NCBI GenBank assembly: GCA_049511795.1
Contig: JBEKXS010000001.1
Coordinates: 120,001-152,000, forward strand
Length of the DNA stretch: 32,000 bases
Reading direction: 5' to 3'
Origin: Candidatus Saccharimonadota bacterium
GTDB lineage: Archaea; Nanobdellota; Nanobdellia; Pacearchaeales; GW2011-AR1
This document shows, in pieces, positions 13,616 to 31,671 of this stretch. The translations under genes and the position numbers were made by a program. The notes beneath the pieces were generated by a model, which saw nothing but the letters and a program-made list of their open reading frames with translations, was not told the origin of the DNA and ran no database searches. Position 1 is the stretch's first letter, and every line of letters starts with the position of its first letter.

Positions 13616-13692
13616 TCAAGGGAAAAATTGTTTTTGTTTTTAAGCATTTATAACTTCTTTAGGATGATTAAGTTTAGTTTTATTTCAAAAAG

Positions 13693-13700
13693 TTTATAAG
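13693..13700 (+). promoter_or_regulatory. TATA box (TTTATAAG) for initiator tRNA-Met
   Basis: Starts 31 nt upstream of the mature tRNA 5' end at 13724. Confidence 0.55.
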
Positions 13701-13723
13701 TGTTCTGCAGGTTGTTTTTGGAT

Positions 13724-13799
13724 AGCGGGGTAGAGGAGCCTGGAGTCCTCGCAGGGCCCATAACCCTGAGATCGCGTGGTTCAAATCCCGCCCCCGCTA
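13724..13799 (+). tRNA. tRNA-Met(CAU), probably the initiator
   Basis: Manual cloverleaf. The acceptor is AGCGGGG/CCCCGCT with an A1:U72 pair. The anticodon stem-loop is CAGGG-CCCAUAA-CCCUG, giving three consecutive G:C pairs next to the loop. The T arm contains GGTTCAAATCC. A1:U72 plus the GGG:CCC anticodon stem are archaeal initiator features. Confidence 0.85.
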
Positions 13800-13806
13800 T
13801 TTTTTT
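13800..13806 (+). terminator. T7 run immediately after tRNA-iMet
   Basis: TTTTTTT directly follows the discriminator base, as in a typical archaeal oligo-T terminator. Confidence 0.5.
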
Positions 13807-13815
13807 ATAAAAAAC

Positions 13816-13823
13816 CTTATAAG
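13816..13823 (+). promoter_or_regulatory. TATA box (CTTATAAG) for tRNA-Ser
   Basis: Starts 34 nt upstream of the tRNA 5' end at 13850. Confidence 0.5.
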
Positions 13824-13849
13824 TGCTAAATAATTCAAAATTTCAATAT

Positions 13850-13930
13850 GCCACAGTCGCATAGCGGTATTGCAGCGGATTGCTAATCCGCGCCCTTCGG
13901 GGCTCCCAGGTTCGATTCCTGGCTGTGGCG
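13850..13930 (+). tRNA. tRNA-Ser(GCU), type II with a long variable arm
   Basis: Manual fold. The acceptor is GCCACAG/CTGTGGC and the anticodon stem-loop is GCGGA-TTGCTAA-TCCGC. The variable arm is GCCCTTCGGGGC and the T arm is CCAGG-TTCGATT-CCTGG. Confidence 0.85.
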
Positions 13931-13938
13931 TTTTCAAC

Positions 13939-14487
13939 ATGCCTGAAATTTACCAGCCAGAAGAAGATTCTTATTTGATGTCTGAGAAAATAGCAGAGGA
14001 AATCTCAAATATATTAAGCAAAAATAAAAATCCAATTTTTTTGGAAATAGGCTGTGGTTCTGGAATAAATTTGCGGGTTGCACTTGATTCTGGAATAAAA
14101 AAACAAAATATTCTTGGCACAGACATTAATGAAGAAGCTGTCAGGCATTGTAAAAGTTTAGGATTTAATTGCATATTATCTGATTTGTTTGACAAGATCA
14201 AGGGAAAATTTGACATAATTGTTTTCAATCCCCCATATTTGCCGTTGGACAAAAATGAGCCAGAAGAATCAAGGCAGGAAACAACAGGTGGAAAAAAAGG
14301 AAATGAAATAATTATTAAATTTCTGAACCAGGCAAAGAAATATTTAGCAAAAGAAGGGGAAATTCTGATAATAACCAGTAGTTTATCTCAAGATGTTGAT
14401 TTCAAGAAGTTAGGTTATAGAGCTGCTGAGTTAGCAGATAAAAAATTATTCTTTGAAAAAATAATTATCTGGAGGTTAGAGATATAA
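13939..14487 (+). CDS. HemK/Mtq2-like N5-glutamine (or N6-adenine) methyltransferase
   Basis: Contains FLEIGCGSGINL (motif I) and IIVFNPPYLP (NPPY motif IV). The ATG at 13939 lies 8 nt after the tRNA-Ser 3' end. The ORF-track start at 13870 falls inside the tRNA and is rejected. Confidence 0.8.
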   Translation: MPEIYQPEEDSYLMSEKIAEEISNILSKNKNPIFLEIGCGSGINLRVALDSGIKKQNILGTDINEEAVRHCKSLGFNCILSDLFDKIKGKFDIIVFNPPYLPLDKNEPEESRQETTGGKKGNEIIIKFLNQAKKYLAKEGEILIITSSLSQDVDFKKLGYRAAELADKKLFFEKIIIWRLEI

Positions 14488-14489
14488 AA

Positions 14490-15077
14490 TTAATCCAAGG
14501 CAACAAACTTATCCCTGCCTGTCTGTTTTGCCTTGTAAAGAGCTTGGTCAACACGCTCTTTTATTTTTTTCTCTGAGTCATCTCTTCTGTATTCTGTTAA
14601 ACCGCCAGAAACAGTCAAGCCATATTTCTTGAATATAGTATCTGATTTTATTGCGTCTCTAAGCCTTGAAGTTATCGTTTTTGCTTTTTCAAGATCTGTT
14701 TGTGGAAGGAGAATCATAAACTCTTCTCCACCAAATCTTGCAATGACATCAGGAGTTCTTAGCTGGTTCACAAGCATTTTTGAAAGCCTTACAAGAAATT
14801 CATCTGCTTTCATATGCCCGTATTTGTCATTTATTTTTTTGAAGAAGTCAACATCTATCATGAAAAGAGAAAGATGTTCCTGATTTCTCCTTGCCTTCTC
14901 TATTTCCATGTTAAAAACATTGTCAAAGAACTTCATGTTATACAATCCGGTTTTTTCGTCATGAGTTGCAATTTCATAAAGCCAAGAAACATATTTTTTA
15001 TCAGAAGGCTTAACGCTTTTGAAGAGTTTTTCTATTTTTTCCCTGAAATCTTTTCCAAATGCTGCTTTCTTACTCAT
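14490..15077 (-). CDS. Stand-alone GGDEF-domain protein (putative diguanylate cyclase)
   Basis: Matches the GGDEF family along the whole domain: HDEKTGLYNMKFF, FMIDVDFFKKINDKYGHMKADEFL, RTPDVIARFGGEEFMILLP, LTVSGGL and VDQALYKAKQTGRDKF. GGEEF is encoded at nt 14718-14732. RTPD, an RxxD motif five residues upstream, is encoded at nt 14748-14759. The ATG at 15077 has TTTATTAA 29 nt upstream; the track start at 15083 is TTG. Confidence 0.85.
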   Translation of the reverse strand: MSKKAAFGKDFREKIEKLFKSVKPSDKKYVSWLYEIATHDEKTGLYNMKFFDNVFNMEIEKARRNQEHLSLFMIDVDFFKKINDKYGHMKADEFLVRLSKMLVNQLRTPDVIARFGGEEFMILLPQTDLEKAKTITSRLRDAIKSDTIFKKYGLTVSGGLTEYRRDDSEKKIKERVDQALYKAKQTGRDKFVALD

Positions 15078-15098
15078 TAGCAATTTAACAATTTTTAT

Positions 15099-15106
15099 TT
15101 AATAAA
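15099..15106 (-). promoter_or_regulatory. TATA-like box (TTTATTAA on the minus strand) for the GGDEF gene
   Basis: Starts 29 nt upstream of the ATG at 15077. Confidence 0.45.
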
Positions 15107-15121
15107 GCTTTCTTATTAAGA

Positions 15122-15129
15122 TTTATAAA
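15122..15129 (+). promoter_or_regulatory. TATA box (TTTATAAA) for the 15151 gene
   Basis: Starts 29 nt upstream of the ATG at 15151. Confidence 0.5.
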
Positions 15130-15150
15130 TGATTTCTCCCTGTATAAATT

Positions 15151-15627
15151 ATGTACAATTGGTCTGGTCAAATGATGAATGGAAGCTGGAATAATTGGAT
15201 GAATGTCACAAATTACAGGGATTTTATACTAGGAGGAAGCTTAGGGGCATTAATTGCTGCATTGTTTATATTCGCTGTAATATTCTTCATTGCTTTATAC
15301 ATTTATTTTGCACTTGCATGGAGAGCAATAGCAAGAAAAAGAGGATACAAGCATCCATGGCTTGCATGGGTTCCTGTTGCAAACATAGCAATGTGGCTTC
15401 AAATGGGTGGATTTTCATGGGCATGGATTTTCCTTATGATTATTCCTATAGCAGGATGGATTGCAGTCTTTGTTTTATTCTTAATATCAACATGGAAAGT
15501 CTTTGAGAAATTGAAATATCCAGGGTGGCTTGGTCTTTCGCCTCTTCTGAGTGTTTTGGGTCATGGATTCGGATTCCTTGCATATGGAATTATAATAGGA
15601 ATAGTTGCTTGGAAGAAGAAAAGATAA
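15151..15627 (+). CDS. Integral membrane protein (about four TM helices), unknown function
   Basis: 158 aa with hydrophobic segments FILGGSLGALIAALFIFAVIFFIALYIYFALAW, WLAWVPVANIAMWLQMGGFSWAWIFLMIIPIAGWIAVFVLFLI and FGFLAYGIIIGIVAW. The alternative-frame ORF at 15195..15506 is rejected. Confidence 0.6.
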   Translation: MYNWSGQMMNGSWNNWMNVTNYRDFILGGSLGALIAALFIFAVIFFIALYIYFALAWRAIARKRGYKHPWLAWVPVANIAMWLQMGGFSWAWIFLMIIPIAGWIAVFVLFLISTWKVFEKLKYPGWLGLSPLLSVLGHGFGFLAYGIIIGIVAWKKKR

Positions 15628-15641
15628 TAAGCAATAAAAAA

Positions 15642-16439
15642 TTATTCTTTAACTATATCGCTCGTCTTTTTGTAATTAACATAAAGCTTGTCAAGAATGT
15701 TTGTAATTTCCTGCCTTTGTTCTGAAGTTCCAAGGCCTTTCCAATCAAGCAAGACCCAGTCGAGCTCTTCTTCTGTTTTCTCGATTGCTTCTTTAATCAT
15801 TTCTTCTGTAAGAGGAAAAACATATTGCGGAATCACATGAGAGATTGCCATGTTTGATTTTGCCTGAATCTTGTTGAAGCCTGGGCAGTAATGGCCTCCA
15901 CCTATTGCAATTGCAATTTCCCTGTAAGGATTTTCCTTGAAATCGGAAATTGCTTCTGAAATTGTTCTTGCAACAACGAACGCTGCTTTTGTATCATTCC
16001 ATTCTGTTTCAGACGGACCTACTTCAATGAATATGCATGGCTTCTCAATTAACGGGCCGTGATGAGTTGCCTCCATTGTAACTTGATAATCATCAAGATT
16101 GAATTTCTTTGCATTTGCATTCAATTTCTCAAAAAGAAACTTGGAGAACAAAGCAGAAGATTTGCAGACTTTGTTTTTTTCGCCGCCATATTCTGCCAAA
16201 CGCCAATTTCCTGGAGCATGGACAGAAAGCGTTTTTTGCTTGCTTTCTGACTTGTGCTTTGATGCAAAAATTATGAAGTCATACTGGCTTATTTTTTCAA
16301 GGTCAATATTTTCAGTGTGAATTACATCCTTGTCGCAAAGATAGAACTTGAACTGCCCAAACTGGCTCAACTGGGTTGTTATTTTTATGCCTGCCTTGTC
16401 AAGCTTGCTCGCCACGACTAAAATCTTTGGATATGGCAT
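15642..16439 (-). CDS. dtdA: Archaeal-type D-aminoacyl-tRNA deacylase (DTD2)
   Basis: FASKHKSESKQKTLSVHAPGNW, EYGG, MEATHHGP, FIEVGPSETEW, IGGGHYCP, SHVIPQY and LDWKG align with motifs I recall from Pyrococcus DtdA (FASRHSS...H.TGNW, EATHHGP, FIEIGSSEEEW, IGGGHY, DWKG). Confidence 0.88.
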   Translation of the reverse strand: MPYPKILVVASKLDKAGIKITTQLSQFGQFKFYLCDKDVIHTENIDLEKISQYDFIIFASKHKSESKQKTLSVHAPGNWRLAEYGGEKNKVCKSSALFSKFLFEKLNANAKKFNLDDYQVTMEATHHGPLIEKPCIFIEVGPSETEWNDTKAAFVVARTISEAISDFKENPYREIAIAIGGGHYCPGFNKIQAKSNMAISHVIPQYVFPLTEEMIKEAIEKTEEELDWVLLDWKGLGTSEQRQEITNILDKLYVNYKKTSDIVKE

Positions 16440-24205: not shown

Positions 24206-24258
24206 AAATTAATTTTTTCAACGCTAATTTAATAAACTCTTTTTTCTTTATGATTTTG

Positions 24259-24774
24259 ATGGAAAAAAGAGGGCAATTTTATCTTGTTGCTGCAATAATC
24301 ATCACAGTTATTGTCATGGGAATTGCTGCCATTTCAAATTATTCAATAAAATCAGAACCGACAAATGTTGAAGCATTAAAAGAGCAAATACAAACAGAAA
24401 GCACAAAAACAATTGATTATGGCATAAACAAACCATTAGACCAAAACGGGATGTTCAATCTTCTTACTGATTTCACCCAGCAATACATAAATTCTGAATC
24501 AAGGGACAAAAATCTTTACTTCATTTTCGGCACAAAAACAAACATGACTTTGAATGGTTTTCAAAATACAAATAATAATGTTCTTTTAGATAATGCTGCA
24601 GTTACTTCAAACAGCAATAGTGCATTTTTGTATAGTGAAGTGCCTGCAAACCCTAATTTAGTAATATTAACAATAAATCAAACAGACTATGATTTTAACT
24701 TAAGCGATGGGCAAAATTTCTTTTTTGTAATTTCTCAGCAAACAGGAGGTGAAACAGATGTTGTCAGTTGGTAA
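24259..24774 (+). CDS. Type IV pilin-like protein with a class III signal peptide
   Basis: MEKRGQ/FYLVAAIIITVIVMGIAAI has a short basic leader, a G-Q cleavage-type site and a hydrophobic helix. The body is N/T-rich with N-x-S/T sequons. The track start is the ATG at 24250. The ATG at 24259 fits the class III leader and the upstream TTTAATAA better. Confidence 0.6.
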   Translation: MEKRGQFYLVAAIIITVIVMGIAAISNYSIKSEPTNVEALKEQIQTESTKTIDYGINKPLDQNGMFNLLTDFTQQYINSESRDKNLYFIFGTKTNMTLNGFQNTNNNVLLDNAAVTSNSNSAFLYSEVPANPNLVILTINQTDYDFNLSDGQNFFFVISQQTGGETDVVSW

Positions 24775-26011
24775 ATGGAAGAAGAATAAATTAGGTGTCA
24801 GCGTCATAATCGGCTATATTCTTCTTGTTGCCTTTGCAGTTGTGACTGGAGCAATTGTTTACAACTACCTAAGAACATATGTTCCAACACAACCATTGTC
24901 ATGTCCTGATGGAGTTTCACTTTTTGTTCAGGATTCAAACTACTGCGGAAACCAGCTAAATCTTACGATAAGAAACAATGGAAGATTTGATGTTGCTGGC
25001 TATTATATCAGGGCAACAAATTCATCAAGCCAAACAATCCCAATTATTGACCTTTCTTCTTCTTTAAACAGCACTTACGGCGGATTCCCAAATGGAAACT
25101 TAATTATGTTTTCTCCTGCAAACAATAACTCTTTTACAGCAGGAAATCAGACAATGCATGTGTACACTATTTCATCATCATTAGGAAATATCTCTTCTAT
25201 ACAAATAGTTCCTGCAGTTTATGAAGTCCAGAACAACAGAAATATTTTAGCAAGATGCTCAAATGCAATCCAAACTGAAAGCGACATTCAATGTACAGTT
25301 GGTTGTATTCCCGCAATAAATGATAATTTAAACGCAATTTGTGGAATAAGAGTTTGTGGAACACAACAGAATGGGACATGCGGTTCTATTAGTTGCGGAA
25401 CTTGTACAGGTGGGAATGTATGCAACTCAACAGGGCAATGTGTTTCTCAATCACAATGCATAGACACATGTACAAACTTAGGATTTCAATGCGGAACCCA
25501 TACAGTTTGTGGAGTAAATACTCTTTGTGGAACATGTAGTGGAACAAATAATCTTTGTAATTCAACAGGGCAGTGTGTATCTTCTCTTTGCGGAACCCCT
25601 GATCAAGTTTGCAGCAGCGGAGGTTCCCAATCATGTACTATAAATGGGTACCCAGGAACACAAACATGTAATTCTCAATGTACTGCATGGAGTGCATGCA
25701 CAACAACTTATGGAAATGGTGTCTGTGATCCCGGAGAAACTTGTGCAGAACCAGCATGCCAGGGTTATCAAGCAGCATGTACATCAGGAAATGTTTGTAT
25801 TTCAGGTTCATGTCAACCAATAGGCGGTGGAAGCACATGCACAAATTACTGCATAAGTTTAGTTAATCATAATCCTAGATACACAAGCGGCAGCTGCCTT
25901 TCTAGTTCAGACCAATGTCAAACTAATGGTGGGACTTATGAATCAGGAGGAAACCCATATTGCCCTCTTGGTTCGTCTCTATCGCCTACAGGAACATGCT
26001 GTTGTTTTTAA
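24758..26011 (+). CDS. Large type IV pilin-like protein with a cysteine-rich C-terminal module
   Basis: GGAGGTG lies 7 nt upstream of the ATG at 24758; the track start at 24749 is a GTG inside that SD. The N-terminus MLSVGKWKKNKLG/VSVIIGYILLVAFAVVTGAIVYNY is an archaeal DUF361-type prepilin signal. In the C-terminal region of about 250 aa I count about 38 Cys, with repeats CGTCTGGNVCNSTGQCVS / CGTCSGTNNLCNSTGQCVS. The protein ends in ...GTCCCF. Confidence 0.72.
   Translation: MLSVGKWKKNKLGVSVIIGYILLVAFAVVTGAIVYNYLRTYVPTQPLSCPDGVSLFVQDSNYCGNQLNLTIRNNGRFDVAGYYIRATNSSSQTIPIIDLSSSLNSTYGGFPNGNLIMFSPANNNSFTAGNQTMHVYTISSSLGNISSIQIVPAVYEVQNNRNILARCSNAIQTESDIQCTVGCIPAINDNLNAICGIRVCGTQQNGTCGSISCGTCTGGNVCNSTGQCVSQSQCIDTCTNLGFQCGTHTVCGVNTLCGTCSGTNNLCNSTGQCVSSLCGTPDQVCSSGGSQSCTINGYPGTQTCNSQCTAWSACTTTYGNGVCDPGETCAEPACQGYQAACTSGNVCISGSCQPIGGGSTCTNYCISLVNHNPRYTSGSCLSSSDQCQTNGGTYESGGNPYCPLGSSLSPTGTCCCF
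25394..25585 (+). repeat. Intragenic direct repeat encoding the CGTC-x(4,5)-C-NSTGQCVS unit
   Basis: 25394-25450 (tgcggaacttgtacaggtgggaatgtatgcaactcaacagggcaatgtgtttctcaa) and 25526-25585 (tgtggaacatgtagtggaacaaataatctttgtaattcaacagggcagtgtgtatcttct) are clearly related at both DNA and protein level. Confidence 0.7.
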
Positions 26012-26017
26012 AATAAA

Positions 26018-26025
26018 TTTATAAA
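26018..26025 (+). promoter_or_regulatory. TATA box (TTTATAAA) for the pilin gene at 26047
   Basis: Starts 29 nt upstream of the ATG at 26047, implying a leaderless mRNA. Confidence 0.55.
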
Positions 26026-26046
26026 TTGCAAAAGCGTTGAATAAAA

Positions 26047-26529
26047 ATGATGAAGAGGATGAAAAAAAGAGGTTTGTCTCCTGTTATTGCGACAATGCTT
26101 CTTGTTGCAATGACAATTGCTCTTGCTCTTATTGTTTTCTTGTGGTTCCGAAGCTTCAATCAGGAAGCAATCACAAAATTCGGCGGAACAAACATAGATA
26201 TTGTATGCCAGCAAGTCCAGTTTGACGCAAATTATGATTCTAGTTCAGATACATTGTCAATTCAAAATTCAGGGAATGTTCCTGTATACAGTTTCAGCCT
26301 TCAGATACAAAAATCAGGAAGCCAGCAGACAATTGATATGACAAGTGCTGTTGCAGACTGGCCAAAAATCGGATTGCCTGTAAATGGAGTTTACTCCGGA
26401 GCAATTGACAGCACAGATGCAAGCGGCGCAAGCACGATAACTGTAATTCCTGTCTTGAGGGGAACTTCAAGCAGCGGAATAAAAACTCATGTTTGTTCTA
26501 GCCAGTACGGGAAGCAATTAACTGTATGA
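26047..26529 (+). CDS. Archaeal type IV pilin (DUF361-type N-terminus)
   Basis: MMKRMKKRG/LSPVIATMLLVAMTIALALIVFLWF is a textbook archaeal class III signal peptide with the (K/R)G-(L/V)SPVI motif. Confidence 0.82.
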   Translation: MMKRMKKRGLSPVIATMLLVAMTIALALIVFLWFRSFNQEAITKFGGTNIDIVCQQVQFDANYDSSSDTLSIQNSGNVPVYSFSLQIQKSGSQQTIDMTSAVADWPKIGLPVNGVYSGAIDSTDASGASTITVIPVLRGTSSSGIKTHVCSSQYGKQLTV

Positions 26530-27047
26530 AAATGAAATCAAAAAAAGGATTATCAGCTGTTGTGGAAACTATGATTATGATTGCTCTTGTAATTGCAGCT
26601 GTTTCAATAATCTGGGTCGTCATAAACAATACAATAAACACGCAATTGAATACAGCAAGCTCTTGCGCAAATGTTGTTGACAAAGTCACAATTGACCAGA
26701 GATATACTTGCTATAATGAAAGCTCTGACCAACTTAGACTTGCAATTAATGTTGGCGACATAAAAAATCTTCAGGACATTTTAGTTTCTATAACACAAGG
26801 CGGGCAGAGCAAAAGTTTTAAGATAAATACAGACAACGCCACTGACGGTTTGAAGTATTTTAACTGGTCAGGACCTATGCAAATTCCAGGACCAAATTCA
26901 GGATTAACATATATTTATCCAATGAACTCGCCTATTGTTCAATTTCCAGACCAAGTTGAAATTGCGCCAATTATCAACGGGAACACATGCACAGGACCTG
27001 CTCCTATAACACAAATAGACAGTTGCACATTGCTCGCTTCTGGATAA
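26526..27047 (+). CDS. Archaeal type IV pilin (DUF361-type N-terminus)
   Basis: MKMKSKKG/LSAVVETMIMIALVIAAVSIIWVVI. An ATGA start/stop overlap with the previous pilin gene indicates translational coupling. Confidence 0.8.
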   Translation: MKMKSKKGLSAVVETMIMIALVIAAVSIIWVVINNTINTQLNTASSCANVVDKVTIDQRYTCYNESSDQLRLAINVGDIKNLQDILVSITQGGQSKSFKINTDNATDGLKYFNWSGPMQIPGPNSGLTYIYPMNSPIVQFPDQVEIAPIINGNTCTGPAPITQIDSCTLLASG

Positions 27048-27071
27048 AACAAAAATATTCTCAAAGAAAAT

Positions 27072-27079
27072 ATTATAAA
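27072..27079 (+). promoter_or_regulatory. TATA box (ATTATAAA) for the pilin-like gene at 27101
   Basis: Starts 29 nt upstream of the ATG at 27101. Confidence 0.5.
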
Positions 27080-27100
27080 CTATCCCTCGCTAGTAGGTAT

Positions 27101-27667
27101 ATGAATCTGAAAAAGAGGTTTTTATTTGGAAAAACGCGCGGAAAAAATTATATCCAGGGGCAGGTTTGGGTAGAAACGGTTATCTATACCCTTGTTGCTT
27201 TTGCATTAATGGGGCTTGTTCTTGCATTTGTTGTTCCAAAAGTTCAGGAAACGCAAGACAAAGGAATCATACAGCAGTCAGTTGGAATAATGAACAACAT
27301 TGATACAACCATAAGAAATCTTGGGAGCCCGGGAAACCAGAGAGTTATACAATTAAGCATACAAAAAGGCTCTTTGACAATAAATGCCACAAGTGACCAG
27401 ATAATTTTCAACATTGAAAGCAATTACCAATACAGCCAGCCGGGAGAAAATGTCACAGTAGGAAACTTGGTCGTGCAGGATGAAAAAGAAAACAATATTG
27501 ATGTAATAAATATGGCATTGGATTACTCCGGATTGTATAATCTAAGCTACAATGGGCAGGAAATATCAAAGACATTAACAAGTGCCTCAACGCCATACAC
27601 TGTCACAATATCTGACCAAGGTCAGGATCCATCAGGAAATGCAATAATAAACTTTCAGGTAAGCTAA
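27101..27667 (+). CDS. Type IV pilin-like protein with a class III signal peptide
   Basis: MNLKKRFLFGKTRGKNYIQGQ/VWVETVIYTLVAFALMGLVLAFVV. The ORF-track extension back to 26987 overlaps the previous pilin gene and is rejected. Confidence 0.65.
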   Translation: MNLKKRFLFGKTRGKNYIQGQVWVETVIYTLVAFALMGLVLAFVVPKVQETQDKGIIQQSVGIMNNIDTTIRNLGSPGNQRVIQLSIQKGSLTINATSDQIIFNIESNYQYSQPGENVTVGNLVVQDEKENNIDVINMALDYSGLYNLSYNGQEISKTLTSASTPYTVTISDQGQDPSGNAIINFQVS

Positions 27668-27677
27668 AAATAAAAAA

Positions 27678-29222
27678 ATGGCAACGATAAAAGACTATCC
27701 AAGAGTCAAAATAAATTTCAATCCAGAAGTTCCTCCCTTAAAGATATCTAAGGATAAAACAAAAATAGATGTCCGTTACAGCGTTCTTGCTCCTTTTGCA
27801 TTTATACACATTCATTGGGACCCAAAAGAGTTTGAAGTTATGTACGAAATTGAAGAGCCAATACTTAATGCAGAAGAGCAGGCATATGCAGACCAGATTC
27901 TTAATGCAATGCGAGACATGATTGATTTTGACGTCATCGTCGAGAAAGACAATGAAAAGCTTCTTGAATACATTGACAAGAGATTTAAAATAATAGCGTT
28001 TGAGCTTGGACTGAACATTTCATATGAAGCTTACAAAAAAATATATTACTATCTTGTAAGGGATTTCATCGGCTTCAATGAAGTTGAGCCTTTGCTAAGA
28101 GATTATTTTGTTGAAGATATAGAGTGCAATGGTGCTGACAGCCCTGTTTACATTGTCCACAGAATTTTCAGGAACCTTAAAACAAATCTGATTTTCAAAA
28201 GCATTGATAGATTAGAAAATTTTGTAGAGAAACTGGCGCAAAGAAGCGGAAAATACATTTCATATGCCTCCCCGATACTTGATTCAACATTGCCTGACGG
28301 AAGCAGGGTAAATGCAACATACACAAAAGATATAACAAGCAGGGGACCAACATTTACAATCAGGAAATTCACAAAAACTCCATGGACACCTCCTCAACTT
28401 TTGGCTTTCCAGACCTTAAGCCCTGAAATGCTCGCATATTTGTGGATTTTAGTTCAATATAAAATGAATATTCTAATAACAGGAGGAACATCGTCGGGAA
28501 AAACAACTTTGCTTAATGCAATTGCATTCTTTATTCCGCCAGAGGCAAGGGTTGTTTCAATTGAAGATACGCGTGAACTTAATTTGCCAAGGGAAAACTG
28601 GCTTCCAAGCGTTGTGCGTAGTGCAACAGGGGCTGGAAATGTTGGTGAAATCGACCTTTTCACATTGCTGAAAAGCTCTTTCAGGCAAAATCCGGATTAT
28701 GTAATTGTGGGTGAAGTCAGGGGAGAAGAGGCATATGTTCTCTTCCAGGGAATGGCATCAGGGCACTCATCAATAAGCACTATCCACGCAGATTCTGTAG
28801 ACACTGTTATACAAAGATTGGAAACTCCACCAATCAACCTTTCGCCTACTCTTCTCAATGTACTTGATTGCGTATGCATCATGACGCATGCAATCGCAAA
28901 AAAGCAGGAAACAAGGAAGCTAAAGGAAATTGTTGAAATAATAAATGTAACTCCTGATGGCGTTGCTTTGACAAACACTCCTTTTATCTGGAATCCAAGC
29001 GATGACAGCTTCTACTTCAAGAAAAACAGCAAGATTTTCGAGAAAATATCAAAAAGATATGGAATTGATCCAAAGGAACTTGATGAAGAATTCAGGACAA
29101 GAGTCAAACTCCTTTACACCCTGTATGAACATAAAGTGTTTGGTTTCCAGGAATTCCAAGACGTTGTAACACAGTATTACAAGAAACCAAAAGAAACTTT
29201 GGCTAAATTTAATATTGGATAG
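27678..29222 (+). CDS. FlaI/ArlI-PilB/TadA-family type IV pilus (secretion) ATPase
   Basis: 514 aa. Walker A is ILITGGTSSGKTTLLNA, the Asp box is VVSIEDTRELNL, Walker B is PDYVIVGEVRGEEA and the His box is GHSSISTIHADS. The N-terminal domain is typical of archaeal FlaI-like ATPases. Confidence 0.92.
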   Translation: MATIKDYPRVKINFNPEVPPLKISKDKTKIDVRYSVLAPFAFIHIHWDPKEFEVMYEIEEPILNAEEQAYADQILNAMRDMIDFDVIVEKDNEKLLEYIDKRFKIIAFELGLNISYEAYKKIYYYLVRDFIGFNEVEPLLRDYFVEDIECNGADSPVYIVHRIFRNLKTNLIFKSIDRLENFVEKLAQRSGKYISYASPILDSTLPDGSRVNATYTKDITSRGPTFTIRKFTKTPWTPPQLLAFQTLSPEMLAYLWILVQYKMNILITGGTSSGKTTLLNAIAFFIPPEARVVSIEDTRELNLPRENWLPSVVRSATGAGNVGEIDLFTLLKSSFRQNPDYVIVGEVRGEEAYVLFQGMASGHSSISTIHADSVDTVIQRLETPPINLSPTLLNVLDCVCIMTHAIAKKQETRKLKEIVEIINVTPDGVALTNTPFIWNPSDDSFYFKKNSKIFEKISKRYGIDPKELDEEFRTRVKLLYTLYEHKVFGFQEFQDVVTQYYKKPKETLAKFNIG

Positions 29223-29278
29223 ACTTCTTAATGGTTATAAACGAAAGTATTTAATAACACTTTTTCCTTCTTTGATAT

Positions 29279-29464
29279 ATGAAAAAAGGTGAAAGGAATT
29301 CTGCTGTAGAGGGCGAAATCTCCTCAATAAATTACCTTATAAGAATGCTGGGTATGCATGTACAAAAGCTTGAGGAAGCTTACAAAAAGAAAGACCATAG
29401 GGAATTCAATATAATCAAAAAAGAGATTATTCAGATACAAAAAAAGATACACACTCTTATATAA
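29279..29464 (+). CDS. Small coiled-coil protein, possible pilus accessory
   Basis: 61 aa, helical and K/E/I-rich. Its stop lies 1 nt before the next ATG. TTTAATAA starts 29 nt upstream of its ATG. Confidence 0.4.
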   Translation: MKKGERNSAVEGEISSINYLIRMLGMHVQKLEEAYKKKDHREFNIIKKEIIQIQKKIHTLI

Positions 29465-29465
29465 A

Positions 29466-30788
29466 ATGGCAATAGACGAACTGAAAGCTAATTTTGAAAG
29501 AGAGAAGAAAATAGCTGACCAAATAAGTTCCTTAACTCAGGAGCTGAACAATTCCGAAAGCGATGAAGAAAGAAGAATGATTTCATCGCAGATAAACATA
29601 CTGAAATCATCGCTAAGAAAATCAAGTCAAGGCGTTGTCAATGCTGCGGAAAACATTTCAATGCCAAATCCGCTGCCAACACAGACAAAAACTGCATTGC
29701 CTGTTGTTAAAGCAAAACCTGCAGCAGCACAGACAGGAAAACCAGTGTTCACAGGAAAAGTTGAGGATTTGTTTCCTGCATTTACATTAAGAAAGCAAAA
29801 AGTGTCTAGTCTTGAAAAAGACACAATAAAAAGACTAAAGAAAAAAGAAGTTGTTGTTGCAAAGAAAAAAGAAAAAACTCCAAGTGTTTATGTAAAATTT
29901 GCAAGCAACCTTTTTTACAAAAGAGCTGAAAAGCAGATTAAGAAAGGAAGTTTTTACAATTTAAGAAGGGATTTAATAAAAGGCAACCTTGATTTTGTTC
30001 CTGAAAGCTATATTTCTGTGATTTATTTTACAACCCTGATTTCATTCATTGCATCTATTTTTGTAATGATTTTTTTCCTTTTCTTTGACCTTATTGCCAC
30101 GCCGCCATTCCTGGTTGCAACAAAGACAGCAATCACAACAAGATTTTTGGAAACTTTCTGGATTCTTATTGTTCTTCCTGCTATTGTTTTTATTTTTGCA
30201 TATTTTTACCCGACGCTGGAGAAAAGATCCCTGGAAACAAGAATAAATGAAGAGCTTCCTTTTGCAGTAATCCACATGTCCTCTGTTTCAAGGTCAATGA
30301 TTGAGCCAAGCAAGATTTTCTCGATTATTATTGCTACAGGAGAATATCCTCATCTTGAAAAAGAATTTACAAAACTTTTCAATGATGTCAACATTTACGG
30401 CTATGACCTTGTTACTGCATTAAGGGATATGGCATTCAACAGCCCAAGCAGAAAGCTTTCTGATTTGTACAATGGGCTTGCAACAACAATAACTTCTGGC
30501 GGAGATCTTCCGGAATTTTTTGATAAAAGGGCGCAGACTCTTCTTTTTGACCATCGTCTTGAAACAGAAAAGCATGCAAAAGCTGCAGAAACATTCATGG
30601 ATATTTACATAAGCGTTGTCATAGCTTCTCCAATGATTCTTATGCTTTTGCTTGTAATGATGAGCGCAAGCGGCCTTGGATTAAGCCTGAGCACTTCAAT
30701 GATAAGCCTGATTATGGTTTTGGCAGTCACCTTGATGAATGTTTTATTCCTCGTATTTTTACACCTAAAACAGCCAGGAGGAGAATAA
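29466..30788 (+). CDS. Pilus platform membrane protein, first half (FlaJ/TadB-like T2SSF domain) with a long N-terminal cytoplasmic extension
   Basis: The T2SSF-like region is LPFAVIHMSSVSRSMIEPSKIF...YGYDLVTALRDMA...LATTITSGGDLPEFF. TM helices flank it, and about 170 aa of coiled-coil/K-rich sequence precede it. Confidence 0.8.
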   Translation: MAIDELKANFEREKKIADQISSLTQELNNSESDEERRMISSQINILKSSLRKSSQGVVNAAENISMPNPLPTQTKTALPVVKAKPAAAQTGKPVFTGKVEDLFPAFTLRKQKVSSLEKDTIKRLKKKEVVVAKKKEKTPSVYVKFASNLFYKRAEKQIKKGSFYNLRRDLIKGNLDFVPESYISVIYFTTLISFIASIFVMIFFLFFDLIATPPFLVATKTAITTRFLETFWILIVLPAIVFIFAYFYPTLEKRSLETRINEELPFAVIHMSSVSRSMIEPSKIFSIIIATGEYPHLEKEFTKLFNDVNIYGYDLVTALRDMAFNSPSRKLSDLYNGLATTITSGGDLPEFFDKRAQTLLFDHRLETEKHAKAAETFMDIYISVVIASPMILMLLLVMMSASGLGLSLSTSMISLIMVLAVTLMNVLFLVFLHLKQPGGE

Positions 30789-30804
30789 AAATAAAAGATA
30801 AAAA

Positions 30805-31671
30805 ATGGAACTAAAAAAAGGATATTGGGTCGGAATTGCATTCGGATTCCTAATTGTACTTGCCTCTCTTGCTTTCATAGGAACAAGATTTTTCCTTTTC
30901 ATAATTGGTATAGGGATTTTGACAATAGCTGCGCCTTTTGTGCTGGCAACAATAAATGAAACAAATGCAGCAACTGAGAAAGAAGACATGTTCCTTGAAT
31001 TTGCAAGAAATCTTGTTGAAAGCGTGAAAACAGGAACGCCAATAAGCAAGAGCATTGTCAATGTAAAGGACAAGCCATATGGCGTCTTGAGCGAGAACAT
31101 AAAAAAGCTTGCAAACCAAATTTCAATGGGAATACCATTGAACTCTGCGCTTCAAACATTTTCAAAAGATGTAAACAACAAAACTATTTCGAGGGCGCTA
31201 ACATTAATAGGGCAGGCAGAAAAAAGCGGCGGAGAAATTGGAGGAATTCTTGAATCTGTTACAGAAGCTGTCAGCACTTCTGACAGGCTGAAAAAAGAAA
31301 GGAAGGCAGCAATCTCAAGCCTTGTTGTCGAGGGATACATAATTTTCCTTGTGTTCATAGTTATTATTCTTGTCCTTCAATTCCAGATTCTTCCAATGAT
31401 TACAAACATAGTTCCTTCTGGTTCATCTTTAGGATTAGGAGGAATAGGAGGCCTTGGCGGAATTGGCGGGGGCGGAGGACAGCCAATAGACAAAACGCAA
31501 ATAGCAAATGCTTTCCTTTATCTGCTTCTTATTCAGGCATTTTTCACAGGCTTGACAATAGGAATGCTTTCTGAAGGCAGCATGAAGCCGGGAATAAAGC
31601 ACTCTTTCATCCTTATGGCAATTGCATTCTTGATTTCAGCAGGAGCAAATGTTTTGTTTGGGGGTGCTTAA
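30805..31671 (+). CDS. Pilus platform membrane protein, second half (FlaJ/TadC-like T2SSF domain)
   Basis: FLEFARNLVESVKTGTPISKSI...MGIPLNSALQTFSK....ISRALTLIGQAEKSGGEIGGILESV is a T2SSF signature. It has N-terminal and C-terminal TM helices and a Gly-rich insert GSSLGLGGIGGLGGIGGGGGQ. Confidence 0.8.
   Translation: MELKKGYWVGIAFGFLIVLASLAFIGTRFFLFIIGIGILTIAAPFVLATINETNAATEKEDMFLEFARNLVESVKTGTPISKSIVNVKDKPYGVLSENIKKLANQISMGIPLNSALQTFSKDVNNKTISRALTLIGQAEKSGGEIGGILESVTEAVSTSDRLKKERKAAISSLVVEGYIIFLVFIVIILVLQFQILPMITNIVPSGSSLGLGGIGGLGGIGGGGGQPIDKTQIANAFLYLLLIQAFFTGLTIGMLSEGSMKPGIKHSFILMAIAFLISAGANVLFGGA

Follow-up and report, generated by a model that had tools for sequence, protein, structure and literature searches.

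Within a 32,000-nucleotide stretch of an archaeal contig (JBEKXS010000001.1, positions 120,001 to 152,000, assembly GCA_049511795.1; hereafter the window) lies a minus-strand gene, 14490..15077, which by its sequence encodes an apparently functional and catalytically intact synthase of cyclic di-GMP (c-di-GMP). As judged from sequence, its 195-aa product is a textbook GGDEF cyclase in a minimal format, i.e., a short helical stalk followed by the catalytic domain, and family searches place it in a large family, so that it is no isolated case. We consider it likely that this is a cytosolic diguanylate cyclase with no sensor domain, native to a clade of DPANN archaea (labeled Pacearchaeota, Nanoarchaeia and Woesearchaeota at NCBI), which dimerizes via its stalk and is inhibited by its own product. 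The domain identity, intact residues, fold, archaeal provenance, conservation across the family and co-inheritance with a housekeeping neighbor are directly supported by the observations below. The value of the locus lies in where it was found: it is a well-supported, lineage-wide and, by its sequence, apparently functional c-di-GMP synthase gene in Archaea.

The open reading frame (ORF; 14490..15083, minus strand) opens at a TTG, with an ATG two codons downstream that yields the 195-aa protein; this is 100% identical to an NCBI entry labeled 'GGDEF domain-containing protein [Candidatus Pacearchaeota archaeon]' (P0001). The Pfam profile PF00990 (GGDEF) recovers it with 136.6 bits (E=8.4e-40, cut-off 23.8), with residues 37-189 spanning positions 1-160 of the 161-position profile, and the NCBIfam model TIGR00254 does so with 153.3 bits against a cut-off of 37.4. 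Only about 36 hydrophilic residues, forming two short helices, precede the domain, and neither Pfam nor the AlphaFold2 (AF2) model places a sensor domain in residues 1-36. An initial annotation of this DNA, which was made by reading the sequence, had described a protein matching the GGDEF domain from end to end, had suggested scoring it with the PF00990 hidden Markov model, and had noted a GGEEF A-site with an RTPD I-site five residues upstream and a short helical N-terminus devoid of a sensor domain. The profile scores come out in favor of the first of these points, and direct reading of the sequence and the helices bear out the others.

The residues expected of an active enzyme are retained throughout the family. 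In an alignment of 30 members that are 59-78% identical to the query (A1), the invariant positions include D75, D77, F78, F79, K80, N83, H88 and D92 in the first part of the domain, R107, D110, R114, F115, G117, E118, E119 and F120 around the A- and I-sites, and R138, S157, G158, G159, R175, D177, K184 and R188 toward the C-terminus. Among the best 120 homologues, 119 carry GGEEF, and every one of these 119 has the RxxD motif at the canonical distance. A PDB sequence search aligned query residues 34-192 with PleD 286-450 (2wb4 numbering; offset +252 up to the GGEEF region), and this offset together with the PleD numbering of the literature gives the equivalences D75=D327, K80=K332, N83=N335, D92=D344, R107=R359, D110=D362, E118=E370, E119=E371, R138=R390, K184=K442 and R188=R446. 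From the roles described for PleD, we take D75 and E118 (D327/E370) to be metal ligands and K80, K184 and R188 (K332/K442/R446) to be phosphate ligands; N83 and D92 (N335/D344) would presumably read the guanine, and R107, D110 and R138 (R359/D362/R390) presumably make up the primary I-site. The Ser that marks the Hypr GGDEFs, which make cyclic GMP-AMP (cGAMP), is absent, with the invariant Asp92 at the position of PleD D344. The initial annotation had proposed an inspection of the specificity residues, which with this Asp and the invariant N83 and D92 points to the c-di-GMP type; it had also warned of a loss of catalytic or metal-binding residues on proper alignment, which is not seen, all of them being intact against PleD.

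The AF2 model built on the family alignment (mean predicted local distance difference test, pLDDT, 87.5; predicted template modeling score, pTM, 0.80) shows helices at residues 9-20 and 24-38 followed by the GGDEF fold. The top 50 Foldseek matches in the PDB all have a probability of 1.00 and are all GGDEF-domain structures, almost all of them solved diguanylate cyclases (two are the GGDEF-EAL hybrids PA0861 and PA0575), with a root-mean-square deviation over the domain of ~2 A. The matches with a TMq of 0.81 include three with a helical stalk, namely SiaD (7e6g), the coiled-coil+GGDEF protein DgcB (6ttr) and WspR (3bre), and the likewise stalk-bearing GCN4-WspR fusion (3i5c) is matched with a TMq of 0.77. 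The conservation of the N-terminal helices, in which S31, L33, Y34 and A37 are invariant in the family alignment, and their structural alignment with the stalks of SiaD, DgcB and GCN4-WspR suggest that they form a dimerization stalk. The same region comes in two forms: in columns 36-43 of the family alignment (window residues ~24-30), some members, the window protein among them, have four additional residues (xQKK/DKKY) between the two helices.

Among described systems, SiaD of Pseudomonas aeruginosa (PA0169) comes out on top both among the NCBIfam models (NF038266, 164.4 bits) and in Foldseek (7e6g, E=5e-17, TMq 0.81, 33% identity), and like the archaeal protein it is small and sensor-less, with a helical N-terminal stalk and one GGDEF domain. 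However, SiaD orthologues would have to exceed an equivalog cut-off of 290 bits, which the archaeal protein misses by a wide margin; it is thus not one of them, and its stalk of ~36 residues is shorter. SiaC, another component of the SiaABCD partner-switch module, activates SiaD, whereas no SiaABCD-type genes are found near the archaeal gene in the neighborhoods and flanks viewed. With the cyclases of the PleD/WspR/DgcB type it shares the GGEEF motif, the I-site spacing, the metal, guanine and phosphate ligands and the fold at 30-36% identity over the domain, but those proteins carry REC or other input domains, of which it has none. A parallel might also be struck with the PleD proteins of Anaplasma and Rickettsia, where again one diguanylate cyclase constitutes the whole recognizable c-di-GMP machinery of a tiny host-dependent genome (PMC10333796), though these are bacterial REC-GGDEF response regulators paired with the PleC kinase and the archaeal case is without two-component input. 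The one archaeal GGDEF protein accepted in the literature, RCIX2274 (CAJ37382) from the complete genome of Methanocella arvoryzae, belongs to one methanogen and fuses REC-PAS-PocR-GGDEF-HD-GYP in a single large protein, in contrast to the 195-aa stand-alone cyclase described here and its large, syntenic and lineage-wide family.

The archaeal provenance of the gene is well anchored. At least 24 contigs that were assembled independently (in ENA, JGI, Logan and NCBI) encode the identical GGDEF protein, with a maximum length of 507,973 bp and with contigs of 0.2-1 Mb in eight index blocks, and wherever the gene order is shown, it reads IleRS-Dph5-DtdA-DUF5684-GGDEF-Mtq2-RNaseHII-SMC-PCMT. The window also encodes the translation factor aEF-1A, SMC, RNase HII, the archaeal-type DtdA, diphthine synthase (TIGR00522), two TrmB regulators, isoleucyl- and arginyl-tRNA synthetases (IleRS and ArgRS), an archaeal pilin and a FlaI-like ATPase, and the 10-kb flanks add an Rpb1-type RNA polymerase subunit, aEF-2, the ribosomal proteins S7 and S12, and RtcB. 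With a GC content of 0.347 (0.316 at third codon positions), the gene falls within the spread of its neighbors (0.371+-0.027 and 0.312+-0.032, respectively). Because the same junctions were assembled repeatedly, the flanks are archaeal and the composition matches, contamination or chimerism is excluded for practical purposes and the gene is native to the archaeal contig. This nativeness had been proposed from the outset, and it has been upheld by the contigs, the flanks and the composition, as well as by diverged orthologues at the syntenic site. Of the arguments then offered for it, the stop-to-stop packing against a HemK/Mtq2-like gene is correctly described: the convergent stop of the latter ends at 14487 and that of the GGDEF gene begins at 14490, leaving 2 nt between them, and this neighbor scores 112.4 bits with the archaeal HemK2/MTQ2 model TIGR00537, above its cut-off of 87. 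The other, a TATA-29-ATG promoter architecture like that of the neighbors, holds insofar as the TATA-like elements TTTATTAAATA (upstream of the GGDEF ATG) and GATTTATAAAT lie ~21-32 nt from the respective ATG codons and similar elements occur at several neighbors. Since such elements are expected by chance in very AT-rich intergenic DNA, they are weakly informative, and the argument was set aside as too weak.

A word-indexed search with the protein recovered 880 proteins at E<=1e-3, and the family comprises at least 120 clusters at 90% identity. The best 120 of the 880 homologues are 60-100% identical to the query and, apart from two fragments of 139 and 148 aa, fall within 193-225 aa (118 proteins; most 195-203, mode 196), with source names that are mostly Pacearchaeota or Nanoarchaeia plus one 'Bacillota' label. 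An exhaustive search of representatives at 50% identity adds ~12 clusters of 176-233 aa at 46-58% identity, beyond which the proteins are multi-domain or at most 44% identical. Among the matches listed for GTDB species representatives there are at least seven family loci at 47-62% identity, labeled Woesearchaeota, Pacearchaeota and Nanoarchaeia along with one Bacillota and one Omnitrophota; the relatives in Woesearchaeota-labeled genomes are 47-54% identical. The bacterial labels prove to be wrong: the 'Bacillota bacterium' contig (DATKUW010000087.1, L009) has archaeal DtdA, mini-GGDEF, RNase HII and SMC genes in window order, and the 'Candidatus Omnitrophota bacterium' contig (DATJPO010000045.1, L010) has these together with IleRS and Dph5, so both are DPANN archaeal DNA under bacterial names, from mis-binned or misclassified metagenome-assembled genomes (MAGs). 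The best genuine bacterial matches among those listed reach only 38-44% identity, are confined to the GGDEF domain and come from a mixture of Proteobacteria, Campylobacterota, Bacillota and Chloroflexota. The homology search and phylogeny that had been suggested for finding a donor thus returned a compact family with archaeal-labeled genomes and went no further: in a neighbor-joining tree of 109 GGDEF domains, the family groups with three short outliers at a bootstrap of 33/100 (9/100 for the strict family), and no donor lineage can be named from this tree.

Beyond the identical copies, the order IleRS-Dph5-small ORF-DtdA-[DUF5684]-GGDEF-[variable]-RNase HII-SMC-PCMT recurs in relatives whose GGDEF proteins are 55-65% identical, and the adjacency of DtdA and GGDEF is still found at 52-54% and in relatives down to 46-52% identity. 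As GGDEF divergence tracks that of DtdA (Mantel r=0.69, p ~5e-4, n=21) with equal means (0.37 versus 0.36), the sequences fit a co-inheritance of the two genes, with losses, under a constraint on the cyclase as strong as that on a housekeeping enzyme. The losses were seen in a metagenome scan that was anchored on DtdA, not on GGDEF, and took in 37 loci in which DtdA is followed by 1.5 kb or more of sequence: the GGDEF gene follows DtdA in 12 and is missing at the site in the other 25, these counts being approximate, with some loci representing the same population in different samples. In several of the 25 negative loci RNase HII begins 266-1139 bp after DtdA, leaving no room for the gene. Thus, the GGDEF gene is an accessory one, and the slot it occupies varies and can also contain Mtq2, NUDIX, saccharopine dehydrogenase or PCMT. 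The slot itself, the DtdA-RNase HII interval (13616-15641 in the window; L005, L007 and L096-L121), is a hot spot of gene content within a conserved block, and across relatives it contains Mtq2, NUDIX, saccharopine dehydrogenase, PCMT, PIG-L, DUF5684, or nothing, at a minimum of 266 bp. Several of the loci recovered come from groundwater samples of the Hainich.

From here on, dimerization, catalysis, the product and everything downstream are what we infer. Two subunits would pair via the conserved N-terminal helical stalk in the manner of SiaD, DgcB and the GCN4-WspR fusion, each GGDEF domain binding one GTP-Mg2+, with the metal held by Asp75 and Glu118, the guanine read by Asn83 and Asp92, and the phosphates held by Lys80, Lys184 and Arg188. 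The two half-sites could then condense two GTP into c-di-GMP, which would in turn bind the RxxD I-site (Arg107, Asp110 and Arg138) and, by allosteric inhibition, cap its own level even in a protein with no sensor domain. As there is no such domain, the output would depend on how strongly the gene is expressed, on inhibition by the product and perhaps on a stalk-binding protein with a role like that of SiaC for SiaD. Concerning the use of the product, the simplest guess is that it regulates surface functions or adhesion in an episymbiotic cell via a type of receptor beyond the reach of current models. A bolder proposition, which we regard as possible but rather doubtful, is that c-di-GMP is a real second messenger in this DPANN clade, either read by archaeal receptors unlike PilZ, MshEN or the known riboswitches, or delivered to the host or to neighbors to manipulate their surface behavior.

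Several observations weigh against the view of a native, working c-di-GMP synthase set out above. Domain searches across ~52 kb (the 32-kb window and 10 kb on each side) of a genome of roughly 0.5-0.6 Mb found no EAL, HD-GYP, PilZ or T2SSE_N/MshEN domain, in keeping with the statement in the initial annotation that no EAL, HD-GYP or PilZ gene is visible in the window, and an Rfam search of the 32 kb at gathering thresholds found no c-di-GMP riboswitch, only three tRNAs; with both searches empty, no second component of a c-di-GMP pathway is seen. The gene has no conserved downstream or operonic partner, the adjacent genes differing between genomes, and it is dispensable, not being at this site in 25 of the 37 DtdA-anchored relatives. 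The synthesis of c-di-GMP is deduced from sequence and a model, and the dimerization through the N-terminus from a monomer model and analogy. To our knowledge c-di-GMP has never yet been detected in any archaeon, and it was absent from extracts of Haloferax and Sulfolobus (Braun et al. 2021, PMC8646023). The lack of a recognizable receptor nearby may point to targets outside the known receptor types. Family members in other contexts (L013 and L014) likewise have no consistent effector nearby, and PADLOC gives no relevant defense-system assignment.

The same evidence can be read in other ways. A bacterial contamination or chimeric assembly, in which the GGDEF gene would not be archaeal, is what reviews suspect for GGDEF and HD-GYP hits in archaeal MAGs (PMC5847659; bioRxiv 10.1101/2021.11.05.467447; PMC10086821), and our searches recovered an apparent case of it: a 583-aa FIST-GGDEF protein, 40% identical over the domain, on a contig labeled 'Candidatus Methanomethylophilaceae archaeon' (CAVGIM010000028.1, 4735-6486; L024), whose neighbors, MlaD, a CBM6/SASA esterase, a sugar transporter and HsdM, look bacterial, so that it is probably mis-binned bacterial DNA. 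The same criteria separate genuine from spurious archaeal hits, as this locus fails by its context where the window locus passes. For the latter, 24 or more independently assembled contigs from four sources, up to 508 kb in length, show the same junctions on both sides of the gene, archaeal informational genes lie on both flanks with a composition like that of the gene, and orthologues occupy the same site in diverged relatives, co-diverging with DtdA; contamination is effectively refuted and retains a negligible probability. An enzyme with another product, be it 3'3'-cGAMP or c-di-AMP as in Hypr GGDEFs or a linear pppGpG-type nucleotide, is conceivable: the Hypr GGDEFs, cited in PMC10086821, show that the specificity of such enzymes can change, the neighborhood yielded no partner specific to c-di-GMP, and the sequence does not give the product with certainty. 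Against this, an invariant Asp (D92, PleD D344) occupies the position of the Hypr Ser, the guanine-contacting Asn83 is invariant as well, and a family that never made c-di-GMP would hardly be expected to keep its RxxD/R138 site for binding this molecule invariant, which makes such a product unlikely.

According to a statement in PMC7996900, GGDEF proteins are able to act as c-di-GMP receptors, and the protein might thus mainly be a receptor or sink that binds through its I-site, e.g., to sense the c-di-GMP of neighboring or host bacteria. This would be in line with the invariant I-site and with the ~52 kb in which no other c-di-GMP component is seen. However, the A-sites of receptor-type GGDEFs are normally degenerate, whereas GGEEF and all ligands of the metal, the base and the phosphates stay invariant among these proteins over 47-100% identity, which indicates selection on catalysis; moreover, the protein has no output domain by which binding could be transmitted, and we regard a primary receptor role as quite improbable. 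The idea that the enzyme makes the nucleotide signal of an antiviral or conflict system, comparable to the cyclic-oligonucleotide-based antiphage system CBASS or to Cas10-type palm cyclases, draws on a weak match to the Cas10/Cmr2 palm2 domain (18.7 bits, below the cut-off of 27) and on the accessory status of the gene in its variable slot. Yet no effector is adjacent, the neighbors (DtdA, Mtq2, NUDIX, saccharopine dehydrogenase, PCMT and RNase HII) differing between genomes, PADLOC finds no match to a defense family, the Cas10 match reflects the shared palm fold, and co-divergence with a housekeeping gene is unlike the fast turnover of defense islands. We therefore give a role in conflict very little credence.

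The reading that we favor, that of a native diguanylate cyclase, bears on the standing of GGDEF proteins in Archaea. Reviews hold that GGDEF, EAL, HD-GYP and PilZ are essentially absent from Archaea (PMC5847659; PMC10086821; bioRxiv 10.1101/2021.11.05.467447). Galperin et al. (2018) knew of no GGDEF in any archaeon other than that of the Methanocella arvoryzae ORF and considered that bacterial-type hits in unfinished genomes may be contamination (PMC5847659), a caution repeated for archaeal hits in a census of HD-GYP (bioRxiv 10.1101/2021.11.05.467447). In Braun et al. (2021), over 300 BLAST hits are reported for archaea, with many of them in Asgard and DPANN lineages (PMC8646023), and Romling (2022) remarked that GGDEF proteins 'need[s] to be confirmed in archaeal contigs' (PMC10086821). 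The locus described here supplies, for one lineage, the archaeal confirmation that these reviews ask for. What is already known, i.e., automatic annotations as 'GGDEF domain-containing protein' and a passing mention of DPANN hits, tempers the significance, and metagenomic surveys also tally diguanylate cyclases in ultra-small or archaeal MAGs with no closer examination. The initial annotation had allowed that close homologues might turn out to be common and already characterized in this lineage: common they are, under that automatic name, but a literature search found no paper characterizing the mini-GGDEF family. Genome reduction usually strips c-di-GMP systems quickly, and there is precedent for reduced-genome, host-adapted bacteria that retain a c-di-GMP system with a single diguanylate cyclase (PMC10333796). 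Hence, the retention of the gene in genomes of about half a megabase (the closest contigs being of 508-623 kb, from the 508-kb one with P0001 to JAQTST010000001.1 with 623 kb) suggests a real function. If DPANN archaea do use c-di-GMP, this signaling would no longer be confined to one domain of life, and there would have to be receptors of a class yet to be discovered. With 195 residues and no sensor domain, the protein is an easy target for expression and assay, and whether any Archaea make c-di-GMP becomes a question about one protein.

The features of the locus and of its surroundings are collected in Table 1. The divergent DUF5684-like gene was considered as an obligate partner of the GGDEF gene and rejected, as it is absent from several GGDEF-positive loci (L010-L012 and L015) and present in GGDEF-negative ones (L112, L140 and L137). 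The type IV pilus locus had been put forward as a classical c-di-GMP target at some 9 kb from the gene; the locus is there, at ~9-11 kb, but the link finds no domain support, its ATPase being FlaI-like with no detectable MshEN/T2SSE_N domain and with a first segment of 174 residues that matches no Pfam family.

Table 1. Coordinates of the GGDEF gene, its parts and the neighboring features in the window
Feature	Position	Strand	Evidence or remark
Stand-alone GGDEF protein gene (mini diguanylate cyclase), 195 aa	14490..15077	-	ORF, Pfam and TIGR00254
GGDEF catalytic domain, codons 37-189	14511..14969	-	Pfam envelope; PDB sequence matches to diguanylate cyclases, best E=1.2e-31
A-site GGEEF, residues 116-120	14718..14732	-	Read from sequence; G117, E118, E119 and F120 invariant in family alignment
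I-site RxxD, R107-T-P-D110, residues 107-110	14748..14759	-	Read from sequence; five residues between D110 and G116
N-terminal two-helix segment, codons 1-36 (helices 9-20 and 24-38)	14970..15077	-	AF2 model and Foldseek; putative dimerization or partner-binding stalk
Divergent intergenic region, 73 bp; presumed promoters of the GGDEF gene (-) and the DUF5684-like gene (+)	15078..15150	.	AT-rich, with TATA-like TTTATTAAATA and GATTTATAAAT; promoter function presumed
DUF5684-like multi-pass membrane protein, 158 aa	15151-15627	+	Weak match, 23 bits, below cut-off; divergent from the GGDEF gene
DtdA, archaeal D-aminoacyl-tRNA deacylase	15642..16439	-	Pfam tRNA_deacylase, 198 bits; upstream same-strand synteny anchor, not a functional partner
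Type IV pilus/archaellum-like cluster	24250-31671	+	Several small unannotated proteins; ~9-11 kb from the GGDEF gene
Weak archaeal pilin N-terminal match in the pilus cluster	26047	+	Profile match
FlaI-like ATPase	27678-29222	+	399 bits, below the equivalog cut-off of 550
Two separate T2SSF (FlaJ/TadC-like) membrane genes	29466-31671	+	Profile matches

A few further observations concern the neighbors. Within 10 kb of the window ends are two possible surface or adhesion proteins of this ultra-small archaeon, one of 568 aa with an Ice_binding domain (L165, 14456-16162) and one of more than 860 aa with PKD repeats (L166, 18354-20867). Directly upstream of the Mtq2-like gene lie a tRNA-Met(CAT) (13722-13801) and a tRNA-Ser(GCT) (13849-13931), both on the plus strand. 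The longest Mtq2 ORF (from TTG 13870; 205 aa in public calls) overlaps the tRNA-Ser, and the true start is for this reason probably ATG 13936, giving a protein of 183 aa that ends at 14487. On a 324-kb JGI contig with the identical GGDEF protein (Ga0427947_000024; L002, 6591-7138), two ORFs of 100 and 73 aa take the place of an intact Mtq2-like gene; the gene may be disrupted in that population (a frameshift or pseudogene), or the break may be a sequencing error.

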